This document shows, one piece after another, positions 30,400-49,958 of a stretch of 64,000 bases of DNA. The stretch spans positions 129,130 to 193,129 of the forward strand of contig JAUHWG010000011.1 in the NCBI GenBank assembly GCA_030424595.1. The letters run 5' to 3'. Under the pieces are notes generated by a model that saw nothing but the letters and a program-made list of their open reading frames with translations, did not search any database and was not told the origin of the DNA. Source of the DNA: Polyangia bacterium. Its GTDB lineage: Bacteria; Myxococcota_A; Polyangia; Nannocystales; Nannocystaceae. Position numbers and translations under genes: made by a program. Position 1 is the first letter of the stretch. Every line of letters begins with the position of its first letter.

Positions 30400-30687
30400 T
30401 ACGCGTCGCCTCCTGGGCGGCGATCGGTGCTTGCGTCCGCGGTTTGCAGCGACATCCTGAGCGATGGATACTCGACCTCGGCTCCCGGAGCCAACCTCAG
30501 GATCTGCGCGCTTCGGCGAAGGTCGACAACGGTCCGCGAACTAGGTCAGGAAAGCCGGAAAATGTGGGCGATATCACCGAAACTCGCCGCCAGCGTGCGG
30601 ATGCGCGCATGCCGAGAGGCGACGCTGAATCACCCGAACGTTGCGGCCGTCTGAGGCCCCACACTACCCTCCACCCCCGAGGAAACC

Positions 30688-31440: not shown

Positions 31441-31624
31441 GCGGCAGCGCTCGCTGCGATGAGCTCGACCGGCGAAGGTCGGGGTCGACGGAAGAGGCGG
31501 CTCGGGCGAATGCCCCTGCCGCCTCTGCTTTGGTTCTTGTGGTTCTTGTCCTCTCGTCGCGATGAGTCGCGGCCGTGGCTGGACGAGATCGATCCCAGGC
31601 GGCACGAGCGAAGCTCAGGCCGGA

Positions 31625-31745
31625 CAGGGGCAGAACAGGGGCAGAACAGGGGCAGAACAGGGCCGGAACAGGGCCGGAACAGGGCCGGAGCAGGGCCGGA
31701 ACAGGGCCGGAGCAGGGCCAGAACAGGGTCAGATCGGCGGAGTCT
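31625..31745. repeat. Minisatellite: ~10 units of 12 bp (cagggGcagaac / cagggccggaac / cagggccggagc)
   Basis: Read directly from the sequence. It is intergenic, between convergent genes. The ORFs across it are repeat translations. Confidence 0.85.
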
Positions 31746-31855
31746 CGCCGTAGAGACCGGTTCCTCCGTCGGCACGAGCGGACGCCCGTCCTCCGAGGAT
31801 CGGCTCCTAGCTTCGGCTTCGGCTCCGACTTCGACTCTTTGTTCTTCTTCGAGGC

Positions 31856-33097
31856 TTACTTCGACTCCGGGCCGCCGCAGCGGATCTCGCCCCGAGCGCT
31901 GACCTCGGCGCTGCGGATGAACACGTGGTTGTGCCCTGCGCCGAAGACCTGACCGTCCTCGGCGATGTCGATCGCGTCGACATCGTCGAAGTCGATGGTG
32001 AAGCCGACCATCCGCGCTGCGTACCAGTAGCCGTCAAAGGCCTGGCCAAGGCCGACTTGGTTGGTGAGCTGGAGCAGGTGAGAGTTGGTGTACTTGGGGA
32101 GGCGAGCGATGATCCCTGAGACAGACGCCAGGAAGTCGTGGCGGATCAGGCGATCCGTGAGCAGGTCGTTGACGGAGACCTCGGGGTCGTCGACACCGGT
32201 GTCCTCGACGCCTGCGATGATGTAGTAGCCCGAGTCGTCGCGCGCGATCTCCCCGGGATCGATCCGCAAGGGCGTGATCGTGTGCCCCCAGAGGAGATCG
32301 AAGTACTCCCGCTTGAGCGCCCTCGGCAGCCCCGAGTTCAGGGAAAAGTCGACCTGGAGGGTCGCGACGCCGGTGGTCAACGTGCTGATCCCCTCGAAGG
32401 CGCGCTCGAACTCGAAGAGGATCAGCGCCGACGAGGCTCCGTCGGCGTCGGCGATGTCGAGGATGTGGATCCGGGGATAGGACGAGGGGATGCAGCCCTG
32501 GTCGACGCAGTCACCGCCGAAGGTGAGCTCCCAGAGCATGTTGACGTTGAGCTCGGGGGTGAGGCTCGCGAGCATGAAGCCGACCGTCCCCCCCTCGGCG
32601 GAGTCGGGCGCCGCCAGGAGCACAGGCTCGCGGCCGATGAAGAGGAGGCGGCGCTCCCAGGCGCCGCCGAGGCCGGGAAAGGAGGTGCCAAAGTCATGGG
32701 TCGCGATCACCCCGTCGTCGTTGACCCGCCAGATCTTGAGCTCGCTCGAGGTCGCGTGGGAGACCCAGACGTCGCCGATGTCGGGCCCGGGGTGCAGGCG
32801 TACGTTGGAGCGCTCGCTGGTGGTGAGGCCGAGCGAGAAGGGGGGCTCATCGGGGTCTACGGGGAGGCGCTGGAGCGCGAGCGTGGAGGGCCCGTGGGTG
32901 ATGAGGGCCCAGCCAGCCCCGGTCGGATCGGCGGCAGCGAAGGCGTGGACCTCGGTCCCCGGGAGCAGGCCCTCGGGATCGCGGAGGGCCAGATCGAGGG
33001 CGTAGCAGACCCCTCCAAAGTCGATCTCGACGTCCGGTTGGCTCGCGCCGACGCAGGCGCTGAGGCTGAGCGCGGTGATCGCTGCCCTGGTTCTCAT
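31856..33097 (-). CDS. Hypothetical lipoprotein, co-transcribed downstream of bioA (4-nt overlap)
   Basis: Signal with lipobox ALSLSACVG. 413 aa with normal codon bias. Confidence 0.55.
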   Translation of the reverse strand: MRTRAAITALSLSACVGASQPDVEIDFGGVCYALDLALRDPEGLLPGTEVHAFAAADPTGAGWALITHGPSTLALQRLPVDPDEPPFSLGLTTSERSNVRLHPGPDIGDVWVSHATSSELKIWRVNDDGVIATHDFGTSFPGLGGAWERRLLFIGREPVLLAAPDSAEGGTVGFMLASLTPELNVNMLWELTFGGDCVDQGCIPSSYPRIHILDIADADGASSALILFEFERAFEGISTLTTGVATLQVDFSLNSGLPRALKREYFDLLWGHTITPLRIDPGEIARDDSGYYIIAGVEDTGVDDPEVSVNDLLTDRLIRHDFLASVSGIIARLPKYTNSHLLQLTNQVGLGQAFDGYWYAARMVGFTIDFDDVDAIDIAEDGQVFGAGHNHVFIRSAEVSARGEIRCGGPESK

Positions 33098-34443
33098 CGT
33101 CGGACCTGGCCGTCGCCGAGCACCTCATGGATGGTCGCGATCGTTCTCTCGCGGAGGAGATCGATCTCTGCGTCGGTGATCGCCAGCGGCGGCATCCAGT
33201 AGATGGTGTCATGGAGCGGCCGCAGGAGCACCCCGTGGCGGAGGGCCGCGGAGCGGAGCGCGAGCCCGAGCCGCGGCCCCGCCGGGTGGTCTTCGGCGAC
33301 CTCGACCTCGAAGGCGATGATCATGCCCTGCTGACGCCAATGGGCGATCGCAGGGCACTCGGAGACGACCCCCTGGGCCGCCCTGCCGAGGGCCGCGGCG
33401 CGCCCTGGGAGCCCCTCGACAACGCCGTCGTCGAGGAGGGCGCGGAGGCTCGCCAGCCCCGCTGCGCAGGCGATCGGATTGCCGGTGAACGTGTGGCTGT
33501 GGGCGAAAGAGCGCTCTGGGCCGCCGTGGAAGGGGGCGTCGAGCCCCTCGCCGAGGAGCACCGCGGAGATCGGGAGGATGCCGCCGGAGAGCCCCTTGCT
33601 GAGGCAGAGGAAGTCCGGGCGGACACCGGCCCATTCGCTGGCGAAGAGCTTGCCCGTGCGGCCGAAGCCGACCGCGATCTCGTCGGCGATGACGTGGATC
33701 CCGAGGCGCTGTGCGGTCTCGACGAGGCGGCGATAGAAGCCGGTCCCGGTCATCCGCATCTTGCCGGCGCACTGGACCAGGGGTTCGACCACGAGCGCCG
33801 TGAGCTCGTCGGCGTGCTCCTCGAGGGTGGCGATCGCACGGTCTGCCTCTGGCGAGGTGGCGCCGAGATCGCCGCCAGAGTCGCGGTGCCGATGATCGGC
33901 GAAGCTCGGCGTCGGCAGGCGCAGCGCCGGCATCAGGAGCGGCGCGAAGGTCGAACGATAGGCGGGCGAGCCGCACAGAGCGAGGGCGCCGAGGGTCTCC
34001 CCGTGGTAGCTGTTGTCGAGCGTGGCGAAGCCCTTGCGGGCGAGATCGCCGGTGAGCTGGCGGGCCTGAAAGCTGATCTTGAGGGCGACCTCGACCGCCG
34101 CGGAGCCGCAGTCTGCATAAAAGACTCGGCCGTAGCCGGGCGGCGCTGCGGCGACCAGGGCCTCGGCGAGGCCGACGGCGGCTTCGTGGGTGAAGCCGGC
34201 GAACATCACGTGATCGAGGCGTCCGACGGCCTCGGTCACGGCCGCGGTGATCCGCGGATCGCAGTGCCCGTGCACCGACGTCCACCACGAGGCGATCGCG
34301 TCGAGGATGGGTCGGCCGCGCTCATCGTAGAGCCAGCAGCCGGCGGCCCGGGAGATCGCGATCGGCGGCTGTCGAGCGTGGTCGTCGAAATGTGTCGCGG
34401 GGTGCCAGATGACCCGGAGATCGCGCTCGATCAGGCTGGGCAT
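33094..34443 (-). CDS. bioA: Adenosylmethionine-8-amino-7-oxononanoate aminotransferase
   Basis: VIWHP, SWWTSVHGH, HVMFAGFTHEAAV, GSAAVEVALK and the class-III PLP lysine context LSKGLSGG match BioA closely. Confidence 0.88.
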   Translation of the reverse strand: MPSLIERDLRVIWHPATHFDDHARQPPIAISRAAGCWLYDERGRPILDAIASWWTSVHGHCDPRITAAVTEAVGRLDHVMFAGFTHEAAVGLAEALVAAAPPGYGRVFYADCGSAAVEVALKISFQARQLTGDLARKGFATLDNSYHGETLGALALCGSPAYRSTFAPLLMPALRLPTPSFADHRHRDSGGDLGATSPEADRAIATLEEHADELTALVVEPLVQCAGKMRMTGTGFYRRLVETAQRLGIHVIADEIAVGFGRTGKLFASEWAGVRPDFLCLSKGLSGGILPISAVLLGEGLDAPFHGGPERSFAHSHTFTGNPIACAAGLASLRALLDDGVVEGLPGRAAALGRAAQGVVSECPAIAHWRQQGMIIAFEVEVAEDHPAGPRLGLALRSAALRHGVLLRPLHDTIYWMPPLAITDAEIDLLRERTIATIHEVLGDGQVRR

Positions 34444-34572
34444 TGCTGGAGCCTACCAGGGCGCAGCGAACGGCGTCGAAGCCGGCGCGTTCGCGGCAGG
34501 GATCGGTGAATTGAGTTCTCTCGTGCGCACGGTCACCCCCGCCCCGCCAGCACGCGCTACACTCGATCCAGC

Positions 34573-35286
34573 ATGCACAGATCACGGAAGCTCTTGTCGT
34601 CGGCGTTCGCGGCCCTGGCGGGTCTCATCCTCGGCTGCGCGGTCTATGTGGATCCGGGCGAGGAGGGCTCATGCAGTGATGACATCTGCGGCGAAAATGC
34701 GTCCTGCAAGGGCACTGTATGTGTCTGCGATCCGGGCTACGACGGCTTTCCTGAGATGGAGAAGGGCTGCATGCCGACCCAGCCGCCGCCGTCGACCTCG
34801 GCCTGCGAGCTCGGGTGCGGTGCCAATGCCTACTGCTCTGAGGATCTCTGCTACTGCCAGCCGGGGGCGGTCTCCGTTTGCGAGAACGGGGGCTGCCTGC
34901 CTCTGGATCAGGTCTGTGACGGCACCGCCAACTGCGTCGACGGCCACGACGAAGCGGTCGAGATCTGCTTTCCGACGGTGGTCATGGGCTGGTCTGTCAT
35001 CGATCTCTGCCCGGACGGTCTCGACGTCGAATGGAAGCTCTTCTCGGTCGATCGTGACTGGGCTTGGCCGAGCGGCGACGACGTCTTTTGGAGCGGTGGT
35101 CTCGATGTTGAGGTCTTCGAGTACATCGAGTGCGGCGACGGCGAGCTGATCTGCTACGGCGCCGGGGCAGGGGACCTTAGCTGGGGCGTCGGCCTGGACG
35201 GTCTTGGGGGCTGCGAGGACTGCTGTTGGGAGTGCTCCGGCGACCCGAGCGACACTGCATACGTGCCAGAGTGGTTGTGTAGCTAG
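34573..35286 (+). CDS. Cysteine-rich lipoprotein with EGF-like modules and one LDL-receptor class A-like module
   Basis: Lipobox LILGCAV. CKGTVCVCDPGYDG (EGF-like). CLPLDQVCDGTANCVDGHDEAVEIC (LDLa consensus C..D..C..C.DG.DE). 28 Cys in 237 aa. Confidence 0.6.
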   Translation: MHRSRKLLSSAFAALAGLILGCAVYVDPGEEGSCSDDICGENASCKGTVCVCDPGYDGFPEMEKGCMPTQPPPSTSACELGCGANAYCSEDLCYCQPGAVSVCENGGCLPLDQVCDGTANCVDGHDEAVEICFPTVVMGWSVIDLCPDGLDVEWKLFSVDRDWAWPSGDDVFWSGGLDVEVFEYIECGDGELICYGAGAGDLSWGVGLDGLGGCEDCCWECSGDPSDTAYVPEWLCS

Positions 35287-35626
35287 CCTTCTGGGCCGGT
35301 GTCAGAGCCCGCAATCACCCCTCATTTGGGTGCCTAGGCCCCCGAATTGACGCGCTTTGCGGACCGAGTTGGGGTCTCGCAGCTCCCCCCGAGACTACCA
35401 AAGCGAAGAACTCAACCAATGGGGGGCCGACCACGTGTGGACTTTCACCCTTTGCTCCTAGGCAAGCGATTGAAAGTGCGGTACTCCGCCGCTGTCTTGA
35501 TGGCGATCGCATCTTGGGGTCGTCAGACCCTGACGCCCGATCGCTTGTCACCCATCAACAGTGGTGGCATAGTCTCATCATCGTCGCCGTCCTGGCCGCG
35601 ATTGGTAACTCGCTGAAAAGAGTCAT

Positions 35627-36085
35627 ATGACTGAGATTGCCCAGCTCTTTGAGTCTGCGCTCCAGCAGAACCGTGCAAGCCTCCTGCGGAAGGCTGCGCT
35701 CAATACAGTCGCTAGAATGCCAGCGACGATGACTCTCCGTGAGCTTCTCCAGAGTGAAGCCGGATCATCGATCCGAGAATTGACCATAGGTGAGCTTAGC
35801 GAAGCGCTCAAGGCGGTTGTCCGCCCCGCTCGCCGACTTCGCTTGAGCGAGAAGGCGCCGGTGGTCGTCGCGGCCCCAAACCCTGAGGAGGGCCGTGAGG
35901 CCCAGGTCTATCGCCAGATCCTCGAGGCCGTCTCCGAGGGCCCCTTGACGATCGGACAGCTCGCCAAACAGGTCGTGATCGACACGACCGAGCTGCGCGG
36001 CTACCTGACCTGGATGAAGAAGAACGGCCGCATCGCCAGCTCTGGACGGGCTCGCGCGACCCGCTACTCCTTGGTATCGGCCTAG
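35627..36085 (+). CDS. Hypothetical protein with a C-terminal winged-helix-like segment; atypical low-GC3 codon usage
   Basis: ATG preceded by a low-GC leader. Codons such as act/att/ttt/tct/aat/aca are frequent here and rare elsewhere in the window. C-terminal GPLTIGQLAKQVVIDTTELRGYLTWMKKNGRI is wHTH-like. Confidence 0.45.
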   Translation: MTEIAQLFESALQQNRASLLRKAALNTVARMPATMTLRELLQSEAGSSIRELTIGELSEALKAVVRPARRLRLSEKAPVVVAAPNPEEGREAQVYRQILEAVSEGPLTIGQLAKQVVIDTTELRGYLTWMKKNGRIASSGRARATRYSLVSA

Positions 36086-36215
36086 GAGGCTGATCTGGGG
36101 AGCGGTCGGATACGGTCGCAGATTTGAGGATCGAGTGTCCTCCATTGCGGATCGATCGCCTGGGTATTCCTTCTTGAGGTCCCGGGCGCTGTGGCAAATG
36201 TGAGCTTGTCGATTC

Positions 36216-36641
36216 ATGACGGATCGTGACCTGATCGAGATCGTCGCCGCGCTAAAGCACGATCTCGGCAAATACTCGTCGTGGATGTCGGCGAACCTGA
36301 GCGAGGAGGAGTGGGACGGCCCGCTCTCCGACACCCTCGTCGACGCCCTCTGCCGCGATCTCCTTCGGACGAGGACCCGTCGTGACGGGACGCCTGAGAG
36401 CGCCTGGGAGGTCTGGGACCGGCTTCGGGAGGAGTTGCCCCTGCCCCTACCAGCGCCGGAGCTGGAGGCTGTGGAGGCCGCAGTGGAGGTGCTGCGGGGA
36501 GCCGAACCTGCGCTCCGCGAGGACCGTGAAGCGCTCTCTGCGCTCCGCCCGACCCTGCGGGCCGCGCAGCGGGAGGTCCGAGGAGAGCTCCTACGCCTGC
36601 ACCGACGCCTCCTGCGCATTCAGGAGCAGAGCGGGCGTTGA
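36216..36641 (+). CDS. Hypothetical protein
   Basis: 141-aa ORF with good codon bias, located between the low-GC island and the sigma-54 regulator gene. Confidence 0.4.
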   Translation: MTDRDLIEIVAALKHDLGKYSSWMSANLSEEEWDGPLSDTLVDALCRDLLRTRTRRDGTPESAWEVWDRLREELPLPLPAPELEAVEAAVEVLRGAEPALREDREALSALRPTLRAAQREVRGELLRLHRRLLRIQEQSGR

Positions 36642-36911
36642 GTCTGCCATCTGCGGGTGCGAGGGGGTGGCCGTCGTCGCCGGAGCTGGCGCCAGTCCCA
36701 GCCTGCGGGTGAGGAGACCACGGCTGACTCGGGATGCGAGCGTAGGCCCTCGCGCCCGCGGTTGTGGCGCTAGCACCCTCAAGAGGGCGCTCCGGCGGGG
36801 GGGGGAGGCGCGTCGGGGCGGGACTTTTGCCGCCGCCTCGTCGCTGCCTTCCGTGTACTCTCATCCTCTGCCTCGGCTCGATGTCGAGCGCGTCATGAGG
36901 CTCCGCCCGCG

Positions 36912-38606
36912 ATGTCGTCGATCCTGATCATTGATGACGAGGACAACTACCTCGAGCTTTGCCGGCGATATATGCCGGAGCACGACTTTCTCCCGCCTGC
37001 GCGGAGCTATCGGGACGCCGCGGCGGTGCTCCGTCAACGGGCTCAGGAGATCGATCTCGTCCTCCTGGACGTCCACTTCAACATCGACGAGGAGGAGCTG
37101 CTCCCCGCCGACAAGGCGCCGCTCTTCGCCCGCAGTGATCGCCGCCGGGTGCTGGATCGTCTCTGTCGGACCCAGGGATTGCTCATTCTCGATCGGATCC
37201 GCGCCGATTACCCCGATCTGCCGCTCATCGTGATGACCTCGCGGGATGATCTCCCGCTCGAGGTCGACGCGGAGCGCCTCCACGCTGAGGATTACACCTA
37301 CCTCCTCGATGACGATTACCTCGACGCTCGCTCTCTGCGATTGCAGATTGAGGGGATCCTCGCCCGTCGGGAGCGCCCATCGGCGGAGGAGAGCGGCCCC
37401 TTCTATTGGGGGACGACCCCGGCGATGCTCAACCTCCGCCGCCGCCTCTCGATCCTCGCCCGCGGTCGCCTGCCGATCATCGTCCAGGGCGCCACCGGCA
37501 CCGGCAAGAGCCTGGTCGTCCGCGAACATGTCCACCCGCACTCGCGGCGCTCCGGGCCCTTCGTCGCGGTCGATCTGTCGACGATCCCCAGCGATCTGAT
37601 GGCGGCGCATCTCTTCGGCGTGACCAAGGGCGCCTACACTGGGGCGACGAGCTCCCGCGACGGCGTTCTCGCCCAGGCCGACGGCGGTACGCTCTTTCTC
37701 GACGAGATCGGCAACCTCAGCCTCGAGCTGCAAAAGTCGCTGCTCCTCGTCCTTCAGGAGGGGAGCTACCGTCCGGTCGGCTCCGTCAAGGAGCGCAGCG
37801 TCGACATCAAGCTGGTGGTCGCGACCAACGAGGATCTCGCGACGCTGGTCCGCGAGGGTCGCTTTCGCGAAGACCTCTACATGCGCCTCAACCCCGCGAC
37901 CGCGGTGACGCTCGCGAGCCTCGCCGACCGCCGCGACGACTTCCACGAGCTCTTGAAGTTCTTCGTCCGCAGGGTCGCCTCCGAGGCCTACAACCGCGAT
38001 CTCGTCCTCCAGTACGCCGAGCAGCGGGGGTTGATGCTGCCGAGCGGGAAGGGACCGCTGCCGGTGAGCGTTGGTTCGACGGTGCCCACGCGCTCCGACA
38101 GCACGCGGATCCATTTCCTCTTCCACCCCAGCTCCCTCAAGCTGCTGCGCGGGTTCGACTGGCCGGGGAATTTTCGCCAGTTCGAGATGACCCTGTCCAA
38201 CCTCGTCACCTTCACGCTGGTCGAGCTGGTCGAGCGGGCGTCGCAGGTCGAGCCCGAGGATCCGGGGCAGGCGAGCCGCCCGGACGTCATCCCGATCCCG
38301 GCGAAGACGGTCAACGATCTCCTGCGGCCGATGGCGAAGGCCCATCGTCGCGAGAGCGACGTGCCTGTCGATGAGGGCGAGGGCCGTCCCGTCGGAGTGC
38401 GGGTCTGCTCCGCAGACTCCCTCAACGCGGTCTCCTGCGCCGTCGAGCGGCAGTACCTGGAGGCGCTCTACCGCGACAGCGACGGCGATCTCGGGCAGAT
38501 GGGCCTGTGGCTCCTCGACAATGACGGGGCAGGGCGGAAGATCCAGCTGCGGATGAACCAGCTCGGGATCAAGCTGCGCTCGCTGAAGCGCAAGCGGGGA
38601 GATTGA
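36912..38606 (+). CDS. Sigma-54-dependent transcriptional regulator (atypical N-terminal receiver-like domain, AAA+ sigma-54 interaction domain, C-terminal Fis-type HTH)
   Basis: ILIIDDE...LVLLDVHF receiver-like. Walker A GATGTGKS. GAYTGA (GAFTGA equivalent). GGTLFLDEIG. C-terminal RKIQLRMNQLGIKLRSLKRK Fis-type HTH. Confidence 0.85.
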   Translation: MSSILIIDDEDNYLELCRRYMPEHDFLPPARSYRDAAAVLRQRAQEIDLVLLDVHFNIDEEELLPADKAPLFARSDRRRVLDRLCRTQGLLILDRIRADYPDLPLIVMTSRDDLPLEVDAERLHAEDYTYLLDDDYLDARSLRLQIEGILARRERPSAEESGPFYWGTTPAMLNLRRRLSILARGRLPIIVQGATGTGKSLVVREHVHPHSRRSGPFVAVDLSTIPSDLMAAHLFGVTKGAYTGATSSRDGVLAQADGGTLFLDEIGNLSLELQKSLLLVLQEGSYRPVGSVKERSVDIKLVVATNEDLATLVREGRFREDLYMRLNPATAVTLASLADRRDDFHELLKFFVRRVASEAYNRDLVLQYAEQRGLMLPSGKGPLPVSVGSTVPTRSDSTRIHFLFHPSSLKLLRGFDWPGNFRQFEMTLSNLVTFTLVELVERASQVEPEDPGQASRPDVIPIPAKTVNDLLRPMAKAHRRESDVPVDEGEGRPVGVRVCSADSLNAVSCAVERQYLEALYRDSDGDLGQMGLWLLDNDGAGRKIQLRMNQLGIKLRSLKRKRGD

Positions 38607-38645
38607 TGTTGGGGGCGCTCTACCTCGATGGCGGCGATCTCGGGC

Positions 38646-38727
38646 CCTTGCGCCTGTGGCCCCAGCTGTCGGCGAACCAGGTCGGGAGTGGGCTGCGCTC
38701 GTCGCAGCGCGAGCGGGGAGCTTGATG
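38646..38727 (+). repeat. Degenerate second copy (~80% identical) of the last ~80 nt of the sigma-54 regulator gene, including a stop-equivalent; it is intergenic
   Basis: 38553-38606 (..atgaaccagctcgggatcaagctgcgctcgctgaagcgcaagcggggagattga) versus 38672-38724 (..gcgaaccaggtcgggagtgggctgcgctcgtcgcagcgcgagcggggagcttga). Read in the same frame this gives LRSSQRERGA* versus LRSLKRKRGD*. Confidence 0.7.
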
Positions 38728-41661
38728 TCTCGGGCGATGCAGCTCGCCGCCGCGCTGTGGCTCGTCGCAGGGACCGCCAGCGCAGCGCCGCCGGAGAGTC
38801 CCGGCTTCTCGCTGCCGCGGCCGCCAGCCCTGGAGGGCGACACCGAGGGGACGTCCGGGACCGACTCCGACACAGGTGAGGAGATCGATCCCGAGGTGCT
38901 CCAGGAGCAACGCCAGCTCGAGTTCGATCTTCACCTCTTCCGCGCTCAGCGGCTTGAGCGTGAGGGGAAGATCGACGACGGTATCCGCGAGTACACGGCC
39001 GCGCTCAAGCTCCAGTCGGGCGATCCCGGGGCTCTCCGCGGCCGGGCCAAGCTCCGGTTCAAGCGCACCCGCAAGGGGCAGTGTCCGCGCCGGGCGATCG
39101 AGGATCTCCGGCTGCTGCGGCTCTACGATCCCGCGGGGACGTGGAACGAAGAGCGGGCGACGATCCTCGAGTGGATGGCGCTCTGCGAAGATCGCTACCG
39201 TCGCGAGCGCCTCGACCTCGCGCTGGAGCTCGGCGAAGACGATCCGGCGGCGAGCTATCGGCCGCCGGGGATCCGCTACACGATCGCCGCGCTCCAGACG
39301 GAAGAGGCGGAGCGGGCGGGCCCCGGGCGCGACGGCCAGGAGCTCCGCGACGCCGCGCTTCTCCAGCTCGAGCGCTATCGTCAGGAGTGTTCAGAGGGGG
39401 GACGCCGGCCGAAAGCGGCGGCGCTTAGCCTCCAGGCCGACCTCTATCGCGCCCGGGGGGACATCTCCGAGGCGATCGCGGTCTATCGCGAGTTGGTCGC
39501 GCTCCACCCCGGTGTGCCGGCGGCGGCCGAGGCTGAGCGGGTCGTCGCCGAGCTCCAGCTCGAGGTCGAGCTCACCCGCTTAGAGAAGGAGCAGGGCGGG
39601 CGACCGTCGGAGCGGGCGGAGGCCAGCTACCGGATCGCGGCGGTCGCCCTGCGGCGCGGAGAGCTCGCGAGCGCGGAGGCTGAGCTGCGCAAGGCGATCG
39701 ACGACTCGCCGTGGTTTCCGAAGGCCCACTACCTGCTCGGGCTCGTCCACGCCAAGACGCGCCGCTTCACCGACGCCGTCGAGGAGCTGAAGATGGCGGT
39801 CCGGATGGACCGCTACGACCACGAGGCGCACATCGCCCTTGGTCTGCTCTACAAGAAGGAATTCTCCGGCGCCGAGGATGCCGCGGCGATCGAGCACCTC
39901 GAGCGAGCGCTGGTCCTGCGGCCGGACCTGAACAACCTCCACCTCCTCTTGGGCGAGCTCTACGCCCGCAGCGATCGCGATCTGGCCCGTCGTCACTACG
40001 AGCAGTTTCTCCAGCGGGCAGGCGAGGATGATCCCGATCGGGGCTTCGCCGAGGGGGCGCTGCAAAACCTCAGCCATGAGCTGCGGGTGGAGGAGCCTCT
40101 CTTTGAGATCCAGCCGCCCAGCGATCTGAGGCGCCTCGATCCTGGTCTGCAGAGGATGATCAACGAGGCCTACCTTCGCCACGAGGACGACGAGGACTGG
40201 GCCCAGGCCGAGCGGATCCTCGAGGCGGCGCGGGCCAAGTACCCGGATGAGCCCCAGGTGCTCAACGAGCTGGCGATGGTCGCCTACGCGGACGGTCGTC
40301 CCGGCGATGCTCGACAGTTTTGGGAGCAGAGCCTGGTCATGGACGCGGAGCAGGTCGACGTCCACGAGCGCCTCGGGATCCTCCTGGCGAGCGAGCTGCC
40401 GGAGCAGGCGATAGGCCACCTCGAGCGGGCTGCGGCGCTCGGGTCGAGCAACGCGCGCTTTCGCCTGGCGTCGCTGATGTGGGCGGAGAACGACCTCTTT
40501 CGCGCCTCGGACGTGCTCGATCGCTACCTCGGCGAGGCCGGGCCCTACGATCTCTACTGGGATCGGGCGCAGGTCCTCCGCGAGCGGATGGACCGGCTCT
40601 TCTTTCGGGTCTACCTGATCGCCGGCGGCGTTCTCCTCATCCTCCTGCTGATCCCGGCGGGGATGGTCTTCCGTCGCCTCCGCGGAGCCTCGCTAGAGCA
40701 GCTCTTGGCCCGCGCGCCGAAGTCCTTCCCGGAGGTCGCCCGGATCCTCTCGCTCATCCGCCACGAGATCCTCAAGCACAACACCGCCTTCCTCATCGAC
40801 GTCGGCCGCGCGCTCGAGTTCGACGAGCCGGACGCCGAGGTGCGGGCGGCGATCGTCGCCCGCAGGCTCTTCGGCGACAGCGATGAGCGGCGGCGCAAGG
40901 CGGCGGATCTGCGGATCGCGTCGAGCCGTGACCAGGGGATCTACGGCCGCTTTCTCGGCTACGTCGAGGAGCTGCAGAAGGTCGCGCGGACCCACGGGGT
41001 CACCCTCAACCTCTACCGCAAGGACCCGATCTTCTCGCCGATGATCCGCGCCTTCGAGGATCTGCGCGAGCTCGGAGATCTCCAGCGTCGCGGGAGCGAT
41101 CATCGCAGCCGCAAGCTCGACCTCGCGCAGCGGCTGACCCGCTCCGGTCATGAGCTCGGCCGGCGGGCGTTCGAGCGCCTCAGCTCGCTCATCCAGTCGC
41201 TCTGCGTCGTCGACGTGACGCCGACGATGATCCGCGAGGTCTTCGGCCTCGTCGCGGCCGAGTCCCACTTCGCCCAGGCGAAGATCGCCGACGTGGCCGT
41301 GGTGGGGGAGGGGGCGCAGATCCGGGTGTTTCGCACCGATCTGGAGGACATCCTGACCAACGTGCTCCGCAACTCGCTCCACTCGAGCGTGCTCTACGGG
41401 CCCTCGCCTGCGCAGATCGGGGTCGCCTTGAGCACCGAGGTCGATGAGATCACAGGCCTCAGCACCTTGGCCATCCGGATCCAGGATCGTTCGACCGAAA
41501 AGCTCTCCAACGAGATGCTCCGCGGCCGCTATGTTGAGCGAGGGATGGGGATTACGGTCGACCTGCTCTCGCGTTACGATGGGGCGATCGCGGTCGAGCC
41601 GGAGCCCGGGTGGGAGAAGGCCGTCGTGTTGCGCTTCTTCACCGTGGAGGACACCCCGTGA
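38725..41661 (+). CDS. Sensor histidine-kinase-like protein: signal peptide, large periplasmic TPR domain, one TM helix, cytoplasmic HisKA-like + HATPase_c
   Basis: Signal LAAALWLVAGTASA. Multiple TPR-like repeats (AHYLLGLVHAKTRRFTDAVEELKMAV, AHIALGLLYKK). TM VYLIAGGVLLILLLIPAGMVF. SLIRHEILKHN (H-box-like). LTNVLRNSLHSS (N-box). ERGMGITVDLLSRYDGAIAV (G2). Confidence 0.72.
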   Translation: MSRAMQLAAALWLVAGTASAAPPESPGFSLPRPPALEGDTEGTSGTDSDTGEEIDPEVLQEQRQLEFDLHLFRAQRLEREGKIDDGIREYTAALKLQSGDPGALRGRAKLRFKRTRKGQCPRRAIEDLRLLRLYDPAGTWNEERATILEWMALCEDRYRRERLDLALELGEDDPAASYRPPGIRYTIAALQTEEAERAGPGRDGQELRDAALLQLERYRQECSEGGRRPKAAALSLQADLYRARGDISEAIAVYRELVALHPGVPAAAEAERVVAELQLEVELTRLEKEQGGRPSERAEASYRIAAVALRRGELASAEAELRKAIDDSPWFPKAHYLLGLVHAKTRRFTDAVEELKMAVRMDRYDHEAHIALGLLYKKEFSGAEDAAAIEHLERALVLRPDLNNLHLLLGELYARSDRDLARRHYEQFLQRAGEDDPDRGFAEGALQNLSHELRVEEPLFEIQPPSDLRRLDPGLQRMINEAYLRHEDDEDWAQAERILEAARAKYPDEPQVLNELAMVAYADGRPGDARQFWEQSLVMDAEQVDVHERLGILLASELPEQAIGHLERAAALGSSNARFRLASLMWAENDLFRASDVLDRYLGEAGPYDLYWDRAQVLRERMDRLFFRVYLIAGGVLLILLLIPAGMVFRRLRGASLEQLLARAPKSFPEVARILSLIRHEILKHNTAFLIDVGRALEFDEPDAEVRAAIVARRLFGDSDERRRKAADLRIASSRDQGIYGRFLGYVEELQKVARTHGVTLNLYRKDPIFSPMIRAFEDLRELGDLQRRGSDHRSRKLDLAQRLTRSGHELGRRAFERLSSLIQSLCVVDVTPTMIREVFGLVAAESHFAQAKIADVAVVGEGAQIRVFRTDLEDILTNVLRNSLHSSVLYGPSPAQIGVALSTEVDEITGLSTLAIRIQDRSTEKLSNEMLRGRYVERGMGITVDLLSRYDGAIAVEPEPGWEKAVVLRFFTVEDTP

Positions 41662-42137
41662 GCGTCAACGCCACCGAGATCGAGGTGCTGGTCGTCGAAG
41701 ACGGCAACGAGTACCTGACCAACCTCAGCACCTTCGTCGCCGGCGGGATCCACTACACACAGGCGCAAAACGGCGCGGACGCCTGTGCGATGGCGTTGCA
41801 GCTCCGGCCGGACATCATCTATCTCGACATGCGCTTCGATCGGATCCCCTTCGAGGAGCTGCTCGGCGACATGGTCTCCGCGACCGCTCGCTTTAACGGT
41901 GACGTCGCCCGGGCCCGGACCTTTCTGCAGGACAACCAGGGGCTCTTCATCCTCCGCGCGCTGCGTGATGCCGGCTACCGCGGCCCGGTGATCCTGTCCT
42001 ACGACTTCGGCGGTGAGGAGCGGCGCTTCCGCGCCCTCTCGGCCAAGGACCCTGCCCTCGACTACTGTCCAGACTACGCCGACGCGACGACGATCCGCGC
42101 GGCGATCATGAAGGCCGCGAAGCGCGAGCCCCACTGA
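41658..42137 (+). CDS. Single-domain response-regulator-like protein (REC), translationally coupled to the upstream kinase (GTGA overlap)
   Basis: EVLVVEDGNEY...DIIYLDMRFD...FILRAL...VILSYD; acidic pocket and phospho-Asp context present. GTG start at 41658. Confidence 0.6.
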   Translation: MSVNATEIEVLVVEDGNEYLTNLSTFVAGGIHYTQAQNGADACAMALQLRPDIIYLDMRFDRIPFEELLGDMVSATARFNGDVARARTFLQDNQGLFILRALRDAGYRGPVILSYDFGGEERRFRALSAKDPALDYCPDYADATTIRAAIMKAAKREPH

Positions 42138-42338
42138 CGTCCGCGGTGAGGGGTCGCCGTCGTCCCGTTCAGATCGCCGGCAGCCGCGGGATGCGGCCTG
42201 CGCCGCCGCGTCACGACGAGCCTGGCCGGGCCCGCGATGGCGCCGCGAGAGCGCCCTCAGCCCGCCGCGGGCGCGGCGTGGGTGCTACGCCGAGGCGGAT
42301 TTCTCGACACTTGGGCCCGGAGCTGTCACCTGTGGAGG

Positions 42339-42719
42339 ATGGTCCGAGATCCTTCGCTCCGGGTGATGATGATGCCGCGGGACACCAACGCCCGCGGGAC
42401 GATCTTCGGCGGTCATATCCTCAGCTTGATCGACCAAGCCGCGGCGATCGCGGCGCACGGGGCTGGCGCGGGCAAGATCGTCACCGTCGCGATCCGCGAG
42501 GTCATCTTCAAGCACCCGGTCTACGTCGGCGACATTGTCTCTTGCTACGCGACGATCCTGCGGCGTGGGCGGACCTCGATCACGATCGAGGTCCAGGTCG
42601 TCGCTCAGCACCCGCAGCGTCGTACAGAGGTGGAGGTGACCACCGCAGAGCTGGTCTTCGTCCACGTCGACGACGACATGAACCCGACGCCGCTGCCCCC
42701 GCCGCCCGGGGTGTCTTGA
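42339..42719 (+). CDS. Acyl-CoA thioesterase (hotdog fold, YciA-like)
   Basis: MMMPRDTNARGTIFGGHILSLIDQAAAIAA...VTVAIREVIFKHPVYVGD. GGAGG precedes the ATG at 42339. Confidence 0.8.
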   Translation: MVRDPSLRVMMMPRDTNARGTIFGGHILSLIDQAAAIAAHGAGAGKIVTVAIREVIFKHPVYVGDIVSCYATILRRGRTSITIEVQVVAQHPQRRTEVEVTTAELVFVHVDDDMNPTPLPPPPGVS

Positions 42720-42800
42720 CGGTCCCGTGCAAGGGCCGTAGCGTCGACCCTGTCCCGCGGTCGTTCACGACCCCGTGACCACACGAGCAAGGAGATAGAC

Positions 42801-42980
42801 CATGCGAATCATCGGAACTCTGATCCTCGGGGCGTCCCTGATCGGCCTCAGCGGTTGCGCGGAGCAGCCCGGCAAGAAGAAGGAAGAGAAGACTCAGCCG
42901 ATCGACGACAAGCAGGCTGACGTGAACAAGGTCGACGACGGCAAGTCCGACGACAAGAAGGCCGACGACAAGAAAGAGTA
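42801..42980 (+). CDS. Small lipoprotein (59 aa), Lys/Asp-rich
   Basis: Strong SD (AAGGAGA) 8 nt upstream. MRIIGTLILGASLIGLSGC lipobox. It is below the ORF-track size cutoff. Confidence 0.5.
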
Positions 42981-43004
42981 GCCTCGGGCGGACTCTTTCG
43001 GAGA

Positions 43005-43027
43005 AAGGCGCCCAGGACGGGCGCCTT
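43005..43027 (+). terminator. Perfect 9-bp GC-rich hairpin (aaggcgccc-aggac-gggcgcctt) downstream of the small lipoprotein gene
   Basis: Read directly from the sequence. There is no U-tract, which is common in high-GC genomes. Confidence 0.4.
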
Positions 43028-43154
43028 CACGGGTCCAGGGCGCTCGCCTTGGCCGAGCTCATGGACGATGCGACTTCCCCTCCGCCACCCTCCTCTCGGG
43101 CGTGATGCGCCCCTCCATCGTTGCGCTCACCTAGAGGCGCTCGCGGAGGCGGCG

Positions 43155-43994
43155 ATGGGCCTCGCCCTGCGGCCGGCGGCGACCGTCTTCACCGCGCGGC
43201 GCTCGCGGGGACGCTACGGCAACGCCCTCCAGTGGCACCTCGGCCTCGATCCCCACGACGGCCTGCCGCAGCTCGATTGGGAGGACCGGATCGAGCTGAA
43301 GATCATCACCGTGTGGCGCCGCGGCGGGAGGGTGGTCTGCGACAAGCTCAAGGTCTGCGATCTCGCCCACGACCCGTGGCACAAGCTCTCGAACGTTCTC
43401 TGGGTCTTCGTCGATCGCCTGACGCGAGTCGTCATCGGCCATCGTTTCACGCGTCTGGCCGGGGCTTCCCGGGAATTGCTCGAGACGAGCTGGCTCCTCG
43501 ATCCCCACTTCGACAGCCCCTCGCTCTTCGTCGAGGCGCGCGAGCAGGATGATCGCCAGGCGCCGGCCTACTACCTGTCGGCGCACTACCTTCGGGAGTC
43601 GGGGATCGTCCCCTCAGAGCTACCTGGGGTCTTCGCCTTTGATCCCAAGTGGATGCGAGAAGCACGGAGTAGCCATCGCGGTGCCGAGCCGCTCTTCACC
43701 CTCTGGAGGGGTCAGGCGGAGTCGGATCTCTGCTGTCCCCGCTGCGGAGGGCGGATCCGGACCGATCTCGGGACGGTCCGCGAGGTGGGCAGCGCACCCG
43801 CGGTGCACGCCCTCGCAGGGGGGACGGTGTGTGCACTTCGCGCTCACTGCGTGATCGATGTTGGGCGCCTGCCGATAGGTGAGCACCATCCTGGACGGCG
43901 CGAGCTCGAGGAGGCCCTCGAGGATCGGTGTCCACCGGAGCGCGTTTGGCGTCTGACCGATCGGGTGATGGAGCCCGAGGACCACCTGCACTAG
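43155..43994 (+). CDS. MutH/Sau3AI-family endonuclease-like protein with a C-terminal Cys4 zinc-ribbon region
   Basis: RGRYGNALQWHLGLDPHDGLPQLDWEDRIELKIITVW aligns to E. coli MutH [36 protein letters not shown] (D-x6-7-E-x-K). HKLSNVLWVFVD aligns to MutH HKLKRVLWIPVE. CCPRCGGRIR...CALRAHC is the zinc ribbon. GGAGG lies 6 nt upstream of the ATG at 43155. Confidence 0.7.
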   Translation: MGLALRPAATVFTARRSRGRYGNALQWHLGLDPHDGLPQLDWEDRIELKIITVWRRGGRVVCDKLKVCDLAHDPWHKLSNVLWVFVDRLTRVVIGHRFTRLAGASRELLETSWLLDPHFDSPSLFVEAREQDDRQAPAYYLSAHYLRESGIVPSELPGVFAFDPKWMREARSSHRGAEPLFTLWRGQAESDLCCPRCGGRIRTDLGTVREVGSAPAVHALAGGTVCALRAHCVIDVGRLPIGEHHPGRRELEEALEDRCPPERVWRLTDRVMEPEDHLH

Positions 43995-44148
43995 CAGGTC
44001 TCGCGCCGCGATCGTCGGTCCGGGTCCTGGGCCTCAGGTCTCTGGGGCTGTAGCGCAGGTCTTGGCGGATCCGAGAGGGCCGAGGGCAAGAGCGCGTGGG
44101 CTCTGGCCACGGGCTAGAGATCCCGTTCGGTCTCGGTCGCCTGGTATG

Positions 44149-44200
44149 GCAGACCGGTGCAGACCGGTGCAGACCGGTGCAGACCGGTGCAGACCGGTCA
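44149..44200. repeat. Minisatellite: 5 tandem units of the 10 bp gcagaccggt
   Basis: Read directly from the sequence. It is ~150 nt downstream of the MutH-like gene. Confidence 0.85.
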
Positions 44201-44299
44201 TGGTCCCCGGTCGGCTCGTTCGCGAGCTGCGAAGCCGAGACTCCATCAACCAAAACGAGAACCCAGGACAACTGACCAAGTCGTCCTGGGTCCCCCCCC

Positions 44300-44760
44300 A
44301 GTTCTAAGTTGTTTCAGCACCGACCATGCGTAGGCGCTATCTGCGGAAAAACTATGTTCAAGCTAGCGGAAGACCAAGTTCAGGCGAAGGAGTAAGGGAA
44401 AGCCAAGATCTAGTCGTTAAGGAGGAAACGAACCGAAGTGAGGAGCGGGGGCGCTCAAGCGGTAAGCGAGCGCCGAAAGATAAGGGCAAGTCAGAAGGTA
44501 CGAAGGCGAGGCTAGGATAGAAAAGGTGCCAAGCTAGCGAACGGAAGTCTTGCAGATAGGGCCCGTCATTGACGGACAGTCCCGGTAGATGCAGACGCAG
44601 TGCCATCTTGTCAAAGTGTTGAAATTATTGAAGATGGTGTCCTGGCATTGTCCGACGTGTCCTACCCTGTGCCCTAGGTATGACTCCCATGTCATGATCC
44701 CCGCCCTGTCACGGTCGGCGCCCATGACATCGATGTCATAGCTGCGGCATCGAGGTCAGA
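44300..44760. other. Purine-rich (AG-rich) low-GC non-coding island upstream of argC
   Basis: Runs such as aaggagtaagggaaagccaag, gttaaggaggaaacgaaccgaagtgaggag, gaaagataagggcaagtcagaaggtacgaaggcgaggctaggatagaaaagg. The only ORF (44326..44520) has a GC3 pattern foreign to this genome. An AT-rich stretch tcaaagtgttgaaattattgaagatgg lies at 44611-44637. Confidence 0.6.
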
Positions 44761-44830
44761 CGGGCGCGAACGGTCGTTGAGAGCGGTCGGCTGGCGGAGC
44801 GTCGAGTGGTACAAGCCGGCTGAGGACGAC

Positions 44831-45931
44831 ATGACGATCGCATTGACACGGAAGGCAAGTGAGGCTCGTTTTCGCGCGGCTCTGATCGGCGGTACCGGCT
44901 ACGGCGGTGCCGAGCTGATCCGACTGCTCATCACCCACCCCGAGGTGGAACTCGCGCGCGTGACCAGCATCGACCGAGTGGGCGAGCCGCTGGAGGCGGT
45001 TCATCGGACCCTCCCCACGACCGGGCTGACCTACGAGAAGATGTCGGCGAGAGATGCGGCGGCCGGTGTTGATGTCGTCTTCCTCGCTCTTCCGCACAAG
45101 GTCAGCGCGACGATGGCGGCCGAGCTTCAGGGGGTCGAGGCTCGGATCATCGACCTCTCTGGGGACTTCCGGCTCCGCGACGCCGAGGCCTACGCCAAGT
45201 TCTACGGCGGTGAGCATCCCCATCCTGAGGAGCTCGGGAGCTTCGTCTACGGACTGCCAGAGCTCAACCGAGCGGCGATCCGGGGGGCTCGAAGGGTCGC
45301 GTCTCCGGGCTGTTTCGCGACGACGATCGCCCTCGGCCTGCTGCCGCTCGCCAAGGGCGGCCTCCTCCGCGGCGCGATCCACACGGTCGCCTGTACGGGC
45401 TCCTCCGGGTCGGGGGCCTACGCGAGCGCGGGAACCCATCACCCCACCCGCGCCGGCAACCTCAAGATCTACAAACCCCTCGTCCATCAGCACACGCCGG
45501 AGATCGAGCAGACCCTCGGGGATGCGTGCGTCCTCGGCGGTCATGAGGCGAGCTTCTCGCTCTCGTTCGTCCCTGTCTCCGCGCCGCTCGTCCGGGGGAT
45601 CCTCGCGAACTCCTTCGTCGAGGTCCCAGCCGAGGTCGACGATGCTCAGATCGATTCCCTCTTCCGTGATTTCTACCGCGACTCGCCTGTCGTCCGACTG
45701 CGCACCGGGGCTGAGAATGCTGAGGTCGTGGCCGTCAAGGGGACGGTTTGGGGCGATGTCTCCTGGACCCTCGGCGAGGTGGACTCGACGAGCGGGCGCC
45801 GCCAGCTCCTGGTCACGACCGCCGTCGACAACCTGGTGAAGGGGGGCGCCGGTCAGGCCGTGCAGTCGATGAACCTGATGCTCGGCCTCGACGAGTCGAC
45901 GGGCGTCACCCTCCCGGGGGTCTGGCCGTGA
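44831..45931 (+). CDS. argC: N-acetyl-gamma-glutamyl-phosphate reductase
   Basis: ALIGGTGYGGAELIRLL NAD-binding motif. Catalytic Cys context SPGCFATTIAL. ATG at 44831. Confidence 0.93.
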   Translation: MTIALTRKASEARFRAALIGGTGYGGAELIRLLITHPEVELARVTSIDRVGEPLEAVHRTLPTTGLTYEKMSARDAAAGVDVVFLALPHKVSATMAAELQGVEARIIDLSGDFRLRDAEAYAKFYGGEHPHPEELGSFVYGLPELNRAAIRGARRVASPGCFATTIALGLLPLAKGGLLRGAIHTVACTGSSGSGAYASAGTHHPTRAGNLKIYKPLVHQHTPEIEQTLGDACVLGGHEASFSLSFVPVSAPLVRGILANSFVEVPAEVDDAQIDSLFRDFYRDSPVVRLRTGAENAEVVAVKGTVWGDVSWTLGEVDSTSGRRQLLVTTAVDNLVKGGAGQAVQSMNLMLGLDESTGVTLPGVWP

Positions 45932-46776
45932 GCCCGCGGGCGGTCCTCAAGATCGGCGGCGATCTGCTCTCAAGGCCGGAGGCGCTCTCGGAGGTGCTCC
46001 GCGACGTCGCCTCGCTGGTCGCTGAGGGGTGGCGCTTCGTCCTCTGTCACGGCGGTGGGCCCCAGGCCAGCGATCTTCAGGCGCGCCTCGGCATGCTGAC
46101 GCGCAAGGTCGGCGGCCGGAGGATCACCGACACGGCCACGCTTCAGGTGATGAAGCAGGTGCTCGCCGGGGAGGTGAACGTCGATCTCGTCGCGACCGCG
46201 CTGGCGGCGGGGATCGACGCGATCGGCCTCTCAGGGGTCAGCGGAGGGCTCGTGAAGGCACGACGGCGGCCTCCGATCGTCGTCAGCGGAGGGGGCGACG
46301 CGCCGATCGACTTCGGCTATGTCGGCGATGTCGTGGGCATCCGCACGGAGCTCATCGAGCATCTTTGGGCGGGCGGTTGGACGCCTGTGCTCAGCACGCT
46401 GGGGGTCGACACTGAGGCTGAGGGGGCCTCTGCGCCTGTCTTTAATATCAACGCGGATACGGTCTCGGCGGCGATCGCTGGCGCTCTGAAGGCCGATCAC
46501 CTCTTCGCGATGACCAACGTGCCTGGGGTTCTCCGCGACAAGGACGACCTGACCACTCGGATCCCGCGACTGACCTCGAGCGAGGCGAAGCGGGCGATCG
46601 CCGACGGGATCATCGTCGGCGGGATGATCCCGAAGATCGAGGAGGCGCTGCGCAACCTGGCGCGAGGTATCGGCGCGATACACATCCTCGGCGTCGGTGC
46701 GGGGGTGCTCGCGGAGGAGGCGGCGACGCCGGGCTCGCGCGGAACGGTGCTCGTCGCGGGTTCGGCGAGCGCGTAG
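45928..46776 (+). CDS. argB: Acetylglutamate kinase
   Basis: AVLKIGGDLL...FVLCHGGGPQ...NINADTVSAAIAGAL amino-acid-kinase motifs. The GTG start overlaps the argC stop (GTGA). Confidence 0.9.
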   Translation: MSPRAVLKIGGDLLSRPEALSEVLRDVASLVAEGWRFVLCHGGGPQASDLQARLGMLTRKVGGRRITDTATLQVMKQVLAGEVNVDLVATALAAGIDAIGLSGVSGGLVKARRRPPIVVSGGGDAPIDFGYVGDVVGIRTELIEHLWAGGWTPVLSTLGVDTEAEGASAPVFNINADTVSAAIAGALKADHLFAMTNVPGVLRDKDDLTTRIPRLTSSEAKRAIADGIIVGGMIPKIEEALRNLARGIGAIHILGVGAGVLAEEAATPGSRGTVLVAGSASA

Positions 46777-46928
46777 CGTGGTGCTCGCGGAGGAGGCGGC
46801 GACGCCGGGCTCGCGCGGAACGGTGCTCGTCGCGGGTTCGGCGAGCGCGTAGCGTGGTGCTCGCGGAGGAGGCGGTGGCGCCGGGCTCGCGCGGAACGGT
46901 GCTCGTCGCGGGTTCGGCGAGCGCGTAG
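46701..46928 (+). repeat. 76-bp unit present in 3 tandem copies; copy 1 is the last 76 nt of argB including TAG, and copies 2-3 are downstream
   Basis: The period is exactly 76 nt (gcgtag ends at 46776, 46852 and 46928). Copies differ at only 2-3 positions. Confidence 0.85.
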
Positions 46929-47110
46929 AGGATGCTCCCAGAGGAGACAGCGATCGCAGATCGCAGCGGGAGTGGTGGTGACCGCTGCATCCGCCTTCAA
47001 TGAGCGCTGGCATACGTTCGATTCCGCAGGGCGAGCTTGGCCCAGGGTCGGGAGCGCGTCCGTCGTCGCGACCTTCGAAGGGGCGCTCGGCGGCGTGTTA
47101 CAACCATTCC

Positions 47111-48349: not shown

Positions 48350-48354
48350 CGGCC

Positions 48355-48646: not shown

Positions 48647-48657
48647 GAGCTTAGAAG

Positions 48658-49950: not shown

Positions 49951-49958
49951 GCGTCGCC

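Follow-up and report, generated by a model that had tools for sequence, protein, structure and literature searches.

In two-component systems of the NtrB/NtrC type, of which Aquifex NtrC1/NtrC4 and ZraSR are examples, a membrane kinase with a DHp/CA-like core (histidine phosphotransfer followed by catalytic ATP-binding) is found beside an activator that is built from a receiver, an AAA+ domain with a GAFTGA-type loop and a C-terminal DNA-binding region. Branched and sink pathways, such as CheA with its CheY sinks, DivJ/PleC-DivK and Myxococcus RedCDEF, employ single-domain receivers; in these a kinase gene and a receiver-only gene are translationally coupled, and the cluster also encodes another response regulator, one that bears an output domain. 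Two-component and sigma-54 regulators, which control social behaviour and secondary metabolism, are very numerous in myxobacteria, and the Nannocystales are, to our knowledge, almost unstudied genetically. An activator gene adjoining its own sigma-54-dependent small RNA has been described for nla19/Pxr (PMC5568312), for CbrB/CrcZ, with IHF (PMC6296734), and for GlrR/GlmY (PMC4987338). The CbrAB-CrcZ/CrcY, GlrKR-GlmY, LuxO-Qrr and Nla19-Pxr circuits have in common an NtrC-class regulator near a sigma-54 small RNA with enhancer and IHF sites. Here, a 64-kb stretch of contig JAUHWG010000011.1 from a Polyangia bacterium of the Nannocystaceae (the window) was analysed. It carries at 36216–42137 a four-gene module which is rather probably a divergent two-component system of the Myxococcota that feeds a sigma-54 activator. 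In its workings the system appears to resemble both the NtrB/NtrC type, with one single-domain receiver added, and the activator–small-RNA circuits. Four module and RNA components are unannotated or divergent, and the RNA belongs to no described family.

Open reading frames (ORFs) in the window were chosen with a filter on GC content at third codon positions (GC3), and the module genes are all on the plus strand and all in the high-GC3 frame. In order, they encode a 141-aa protein with an HDLGK motif (36216–36641), an NtrC-class sigma-54 activator of 564 aa (36912–38606), a sensor kinase with tetratricopeptide repeats (TPR; 38656 or 38725–41661) and a receiver-only protein of 159 aa (41658–42137). 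Compared with the NtrB/NtrC type, the kinase family lies outside Pfam and has a huge, predicted periplasmic TPR sensor and an insert of ∼95 aa in the DHp region, the activator receiver has an insertion and lacks the conserved Lys, the AAA+ lid carries an insert, and there are two extra partners, the receiver-only and HDLGK proteins. Compared with the sink-type pathways, the two receivers, known here from sequence, are close paralogues of an atypical Lys-less subfamily. A further combination of histidine kinase, sigma-54 regulator and TPR envelope protein is the PrsK/PrsR/PrsT set of PEP-CTERM/exosortase systems (PMC1569441). Membership of this set (TIGR02917/TIGR02915) was ruled out, as the window proteins scored far below the family cut-offs (PrsT, 68 bits against 312; PrsR, 168 bits against 503). 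Moreover, the window TPR region is fused to the kinase and is not a separate lipoprotein, and no exosortase or PEP-CTERM genes were seen near the module.

A genome scan gave 68 related loci, all from Nannocystales (Nannocystis, Enhygromyxa, Plesiocystis, Paraliomyxa and metagenome-assembled genomes, MAGs), and the presence of a gene was counted only in loci with enough flank on the relevant side. The 141-aa gene and the activator gene are upstream of the kinase gene in 53/53 of these loci, and the receiver-only gene follows the kinase gene in 66/66. Additional loci from MAGs of distant Myxococcota have flanks unrelated to the window. In L071/L072 and L073 four genes, each overlapping the next, encode a small protein, an activator, a TPR-kinase and a receiver; L069 and L070 (contig ends early) contain the kinase–receiver pair only. 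The small proteins of L071 and L073 are 31–35% identical to the 141-aa protein of the window, retain HDLGK without change, and are encoded by genes that overlap the activator gene. Because four overlapping genes recur in distant loci with unrelated flanks, the functional unit is four genes, the 141-aa protein included, and the initial annotation, which had described a three-component module merely preceded by this hypothetical protein, is revised on this point. It had named a lack of co-conservation in relatives as evidence against the module; the counts and the distant loci show the genes to be co-conserved. The conservation of the module is far beyond chance, and the module is a real and strongly conserved myxobacterial signalling unit.

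Judged from its sequence, the activator is a genuine NtrC-class enhancer-binding protein, as initially annotated, and it is the sole enhancer-binding protein in the 64-kb window. An atypical receiver (residues 1–160) is followed by the AAA+ domain (residues 167–∼440) and a C-terminal DNA-binding region. Residues 167–328 match Pfam Sigma54_activat (PF00158) with an E-value of 9e-54, a Walker A motif (GATGTGKS) and an LFLDEIG motif can be read from the sequence, and the GAYTGA sigma-54 contact loop (residues 240–245; 37629–37646, plus strand) is invariant in 56 orthologues. The closest sequence matches in the PDB are NtrC1 and NtrC4 (E 1e-48), and the NCBIfam models ntrC, RtcR and AtoC all match below their equivalog cut-offs. 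The Pfam match of the receiver is partial (32.7 bits, residues 86–128) because an insertion follows the phospho-Asp, in agreement with the atypical extended receiver noted at the outset. At the C-terminus a conserved GRK(I/V)QLRMNQLGIKLR sequence resembles, by eye only, the recognition helix of Fis-type/NtrC proteins.

The kinase ORF (1001 aa) opens at GTG 38656, but the likely start is ATG 38725, which has GGGGAG just before it and gives a protein of 978 aa, one residue fewer than was first annotated. The N-terminus (MSRAMQLAAALWLVAGTASA followed by AP) looks like a signal peptide, Pfam TPR matches fall at residues ∼250–620, and a transmembrane helix, FFRVYLIAGGVLLILLLIPAGMVF, occupies ORF residues 649–672 (40600–40671, plus strand) and is the only segment to score >1.6 in a Kyte–Doolittle scan. 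The signal peptide, TPR array and single transmembrane helix of the initial annotation are thus all recovered, and the ∼600-aa TPR region is predicted to be periplasmic.

The cytoplasmic domain of the kinase found no match in Pfam, NCBIfam or PDB sequence searches. In an AlphaFold (AF2) model built from 22 homologues, with a pLDDT of 84.7, Foldseek aligned 230–300 columns to DHp-CA structures (CpxA, HK853, KinB, ZraS and DivL) with a probability of 1.00, and the top fold matches are sensor histidine kinases and not Ser kinases. As judged from this model, a catalytic ATP-binding domain of the Bergerat fold is present. The candidate phospho-accepting residue is His29 of the cytoplasmic domain (40762–40764, plus strand), which lies in the motif RHEILKHNT and sits in predicted helix 14–35. 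The kinase motifs are RHE(I/V)LKHNT with its His, DILxNVxRNS with its Asn, DRS with its Asp and RGMGIT with its glycines. His29, Asn232, Asp270 and Gly289-x-Gly291 do not vary among 66 Nannocystales kinase sequences, and in 110 distant representatives (median identity 35%) their conservation is 95% or more, and the catalytic motif residues are the most conserved positions of the domain. The initial annotation had named beforehand the lack of a functional H-box or ATP lid as evidence against a kinase; because the fold is accompanied by conserved H-box-like, N-box, G1-Asp and G2 motifs, its description of a kinase-like domain stands. The cytoplasmic domain is, on the predicted model, divergent histidine-kinase-like, with a histidine-kinase fold and predicted catalysis.

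A full HMMER profile search recovered 458 representatives of this kinase family at E<=1e-3. Most members are 850–1100 aa long with the kinase domain at the C-terminus, and their annotations go no further than TPR or hypothetical protein. An earlier word-indexed search had found 25 proteins and suggested restriction to the Nannocystaceae, a view that was dropped on the profile search result. One database protein, P0024 (370 aa, named 'acyl-CoA thioesterase YciA' by JGI), matches the kinase C-terminus (22% of the query, at 90% identity) and has a 4HBT thioesterase domain as well; a gene-calling error or a frameshift has probably run the end of the kinase gene, the receiver gene and the thioesterase gene together in it.

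The GTG start of the receiver-only gene at 41658 overlaps the TGA stop of the kinase gene at 41659–41661, giving the GTGA overlap described initially. The Pfam Response_reg score of the receiver-only protein is 22.6 bits, below the cut-off of 30.2; the protein nevertheless has a true CheY-like (beta-alpha)5 fold, which confirms its annotation as a stand-alone receiver, and the N-terminal domain of the activator is assigned to this fold as well. It is 30% identical to the N-terminal domain of the activator over its full length, including the insertion, which comprises 25–36 aa after the phospho-Asp in each receiver. From this comparison the two receivers are taken as paralogues with a common insertion. 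The acidic pocket, phospho-Asp and beta4 Ser/Thr (E14-D15, D57 and S114 in the receiver-only protein; D8-D9, D53 and T109 in the activator) are kept in both, distant homologues included. By sequence, then, the receivers form an unusual Lys-less subfamily that retains the phospho-Asp.

In the 141-aa protein, residues H15, D16, L17, G18 and K19 are invariant across near and distant homologues, and the His is preceded by a hydrophobic helix-like stretch. All 151 database homologues are named hypothetical, and the family contains no Pfam domain. Identification of the protein as an Hpt or an HD protein found no support in Pfam, PDB or hhalign comparisons.

On the reading that we prefer, the periplasmic TPR domain of ∼600 aa would sense a signal on the envelope side, for which a protein or peptide partner is the most plausible candidate; this last suggestion, already made in the initial annotation, is pure inference. 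The signal would pass through the single transmembrane helix to the cytoplasmic DHp-like/CA core, and the kinase would autophosphorylate on the invariant His of RHEILKHNT. The phosphoryl group would then be transferred to Asp53 of the activator and Asp57 of the receiver-only protein. The phosphorylated activator would oligomerize, and its GAYTGA loops would open sigma-54 promoters, whereas the receiver-only protein may compete for or drain phosphate, or modulate the kinase, and the HDLGK protein would be an obligatory accessory. The analysis shows the folds of the domains, the conserved motifs, genes that are coupled and co-conserved, and a conserved promoter and RNA; which ligand is sensed, which way phosphate flows and that this activator serves the promoter described below are inferred. 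The receiver-only protein had also been proposed initially to shuttle phosphate towards the activator. A direct shuttle is ruled out because Asp-to-Asp transfer is chemically impossible without a His intermediate, which leaves for the receiver-only protein the part of a sink or modulator, or of a step in a relay that runs through a His protein.

Beyond the range initially annotated lies what is probably the local output of the module, a small RNA predicted to be transcribed from a sigma-54 promoter with two enhancer sites. Promoter and RNA are located ∼2.4 kb downstream of the module on the minus strand, in a gap of 780 bp between a gene for a 308-aa protein and argC. The promoter TGGCACtgcgtCTGCA (TGGCAC-tgcgt-CTGCA; 44605–44590, minus strand) is, with one mismatch, the best sigma-54 match in the window, and the pattern TGGC(C/A/T)C-N5-nTGCA is kept in ∼40 loci with a variable spacer. 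Upstream of it is an A/T-rich element, CAATAATTTCAACACTTTGA (44611–44630, minus strand), which is IHF-like in matching WATCAA-N4-TTR with one mismatch, and AATGATTTCAA-N4-TTG (CAATAATTTCAA-N4-TTG in the window) is kept order-wide between the upstream sites and the promoter. This suggests that IHF may bind the element. The proximal upstream activator site, which reads TGACATGGGAGTCA on the minus strand (44681–44694; centre ∼ −107), has the form GGACA-N4-CGTCA or TGACA-N4-nGTCA and lies at a fixed distance from the promoter in ∼40 loci. The distal site is a perfect palindrome, TGACATCGATGTCA (44725–44738; centre ∼ −151), conserved as (C/T)GACA-N4-TGTCA with a variable 4-nt spacer. Across the 64 kb nothing matches but the palindrome and the proximal site (one mismatch), and the chance expectation is 0.44. 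Throughout the order the −24/−12 elements and the two enhancer sites are kept, as is their spacing, and the spacer sequences vary. With GG-N10-GC in its −24/−12 elements, conservation among orthologous loci and enhancer sites upstream, the sequence reads as a sigma-54 promoter. No sigma-54 promoter or palindrome was found upstream of the module genes, and autoregulation by such elements was therefore rejected; nor, unlike the distant loci described below, does the window have such a promoter in the gap that follows the receiver gene, ahead of the thioesterase gene.

The candidate sigma-54-dependent non-coding RNA is ∼330 nt long (∼44581–44250, minus strand), and no credible ORF is present in the ∼330 nt downstream of the promoter. 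It consists of a 5' hairpin, a C/U-rich body with repeated CUUGGCUU, CUGACUU and CUUAGCUU motifs, and a 3' end in which a conserved GGUCGGUGC box is followed by a terminator hairpin with a UGGUC loop. The terminator, a 17-bp hairpin at 44295–44257, is the only terminator-like site in 11 kb. When the 3' hairpin was assessed by per-sequence folding it formed in 31/31 orthologues, which represent 25 different sequences; the stem covaries, and the loop is UGGUC in 29 of the 31. RNA length varies from 220 to 510 nt among loci, with indels that are not multiples of three. In nhmmer profile searches 45 loci proved to carry the promoter module and 36 the 3' module, constant in place and orientation, and 46 of the 54 loci with enough downstream flank have at least one RNA module. 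The element occurs among loci L001–L067, for example in L013 (11042–11475), where an RNA of ∼260–290 nt is predicted at 11329–11042 on the minus strand. Rfam gave nothing at the gathering score in 30000–50000, and in 44200–44650 it gave only chance matches to eukaryotic lncRNA (long non-coding RNA) and miRNA (microRNA) families (E 0.9–10), with no Pxr, CrcZ, GlmY or Qrr.

The RNA resembles CrcZ in being several hundred nt long with a repeated short motif. It differs from the RNAs of the known circuits in having no sequence or Rfam relation to them and in its repeats, which are C/U-rich (CUUGGCUU/CUGACUU) and not A-rich or GGA. Its position also differs, being 2.4 kb away on the opposite strand and past two other genes, and its regulation by this activator is a proposal. 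No RNA homologues were found near the distant modules L069–L073. In L073 and L071 a sigma-54 promoter (TTGGCACgaggtATGCA, 11527–11622, and TGGCACgggccGTGCG, ∼11340–11440, respectively) comes directly after the receiver gene and before small genes for unknown proteins of 141–143 aa, an arrangement that fits a module acting on an adjacent promoter. An inverted repeat, TTTGTAT-N7-ATACAAA, was seen upstream of the L073 promoter. In the window, a perfect five-copy tandem repeat of the 10-bp unit GCAGACCGGT (44149–44198) lies between the RNA terminator and the 3' end of the 308-aa gene; it is absent from the closest relatives in the alignment.

Several properties of the proteins weigh against phosphotransfer from a kinase to a DNA-binding activator as set out above. 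The window kinase gave no Pfam match to HisKA or HATPase_c even at E<10, and HATPase_c appeared below threshold in only 4 of 22 relatives scanned singly (best E 0.018). The G1 box reads DRS instead of DxGxG, with the glycines replaced, the ATP lid is very short (∼19 residues between G1 and G2), and in the model additional helices, ∼95 residues in all, intervene between the His helix and the long one that runs into the CA domain. It is because of these three features that the kinase is called divergent histidine-kinase-like, and the predicted model does not prove a canonical DHp. At the beta5 Lys position the receiver-only protein has Cys137-Pro138 and the activator has Leu, and the Lys is absent in all eight near and distant members aligned, which could mean an altered phosphorylation chemistry, or none. 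In addition, the activator gave no match to Pfam HTH_8 at E<0.1, so that the Fis-type helix–turn–helix annotated initially is a candidate, seen by eye in the conserved C-terminus. If the want of a Pfam kinase match, the lost G1 glycines, the short lid and the Lys missing from all members of both receiver families are taken at face value, the kinase-like protein could be a pseudokinase, a phosphatase or another GHKL ATPase, and the receivers pseudo-receivers run by protein–protein binding. We consider this very improbable, given that the His, the Mg-binding Asn, the adenine-binding Asp and the G2 glycines are the positions best conserved over deep divergence, that the acidic pocket, Asp and Ser/Thr persist in both receivers, that sensor histidine kinases and not Ser kinases head the fold matches, and that the kinase gene overlaps the receiver gene as in cognate pairs. 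The same four genes might instead encode a His-Asp-His-Asp phosphorelay, in which phosphate would move from the kinase to the receiver-only protein, to His15 of an Hpt-/DHp-like 141-aa protein and on to the activator receiver, in a split version of LuxQ-LuxU-LuxO-Qrr or Spo0F-Spo0B-Spo0A. In such a relay the receiver-only protein would be indispensable, and the scheme would suit a conserved, translationally coupled unit of four genes. The invariant His of (K)HDLGK(Y), after its hydrophobic stretch, also looks like that of the kinase (R)HEILK(H) and like the H-box/HxxKG motifs of phosphotransfer domains; HDxGK, however, is equally a hallmark of HD phosphohydrolases. Although hhalign places the His of the 141-aa protein and that of the kinase in register, the match is not significant (probability 0.4%, E 0.14), neither Hpt nor HisKA of Pfam matched any of 27 members of the family at E<10, and a PDB profile search with the family returned nothing relevant. 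A phosphorelay is accordingly regarded as unlikely.

The preferred two-component reading includes the small RNA as the likely output of the module, a pairing proposed from position and co-conservation, and it is here that a further alternative arises. The module may be real and the RNA not its target, the enhancer sites being used by another enhancer-binding protein or the palindromes serving the arg genes, while the activator acts elsewhere in the genome. The link between activator and RNA is drawn only from proximity and co-conservation, and in 8 of the 54 loci the module is present but no RNA lies near it. These genomes presumably encode many other enhancer-binding proteins; none, apart from the activator, is found in the 64 kb. 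The enhancer sites are just upstream of the divergent argC/argB genes, and because they lie within ∼40–200 nt of the argC/argB start, divergent co-regulation of arg genes is possible. In L043 the RNA stays with argB where an insertion parts it from the module side; conversely, in L011 and L017, where the arg genes are absent, the RNA stays by the module side. The distant modules have other sigma-54 targets, the small protein genes, and no RNA homologue. Set against this, the spacing from enhancers to promoter is fixed across the order, and activator genes repeatedly adjoin their small-RNA targets (PMC5568312, PMC6296734). On balance, an RNA that is not the target is possible but somewhat unlikely. 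A bolder proposal would make the locus a new, Myxococcota-specific class of phosphorelay, with a new kinase family that has a periplasmic TPR sensor, a new subfamily of Lys-less receivers with an insertion beside the phosphorylation site, a new small HDLGK phosphotransfer protein and, in Nannocystales, a new sigma-54-dependent small-RNA output whose many CUUGGCUU/CUGACUU repeats act as a sponge for an RNA-binding protein, a role proposed by analogy with CbrAB-CrcZ; we regard this combination as distinctly unlikely.

The genes around the module are syntenic within the Nannocystales. Two GC3-filtered ORFs on the plus strand always precede it in this order and not in the distant Myxococcota: one (34573–35286) encodes a protein rich in Cys that looks secreted or like a lipoprotein and bears an LDL-receptor class A (LDLa) repeat, and the other (35627–36085) a 152-aa ArsR-like winged-helix (helix–turn–helix) protein. 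Downstream, a 4HBT/YciA-like acyl-CoA thioesterase gene (42237–42719, plus strand; Pfam 4HBT, E 1.9e-17; NCBIfam YciA, 92 bits, below the cut-off of 162) is syntenic in 57 loci and absent from the distant module loci. The gene for the conserved 308-aa protein (43068–43994, plus strand), convergent with the small RNA, is syntenic in 53 loci, all of Nannocystales. This protein has no Pfam or PDB match; it displays the motifs GNALQWHLGL, DWEDRIE-x-K, CPRCG and a C-terminal EPxDHLH, and the one similarity found, MutH-like and below threshold (E 0.042), may point to a PD-(D/E)xK nuclease fold. Arginine-biosynthesis-like genes (class-III aminotransferase, argC-like, argB-like and M20 deacylase) flank the cluster at 33094–34443 (minus strand) and at 44777–45931, 45748–46776 and 47000–48349 (plus strand), and are syntenic in many loci. 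The GC content of the window is high (0.65–0.72), and the low-GC island initially placed before the module is only a mild dip (0.61–0.64 against 0.67–0.72). Because the genes in the dip are syntenic across the Nannocystales, it is not an acquired island, and horizontal acquisition was ruled out.

Overall, the analysis indicates that hundreds of proteins now named 'TPR repeat' or 'hypothetical' would be sensor-kinase-like, and that kinase censuses based on Pfam miss them. Receivers that keep the phospho-Asp and lack the 'universal' Lys provide a natural test case for the role of this residue. The small RNA would be a new, unannotated family that extends across the order, and its repeat architecture suggests protein sequestration. 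Finally, the locus offers a testable chain from sensor to activator, enhancer sites and small RNA, which may be addressed in culture, for example with Nannocystis exedens DSM 71.

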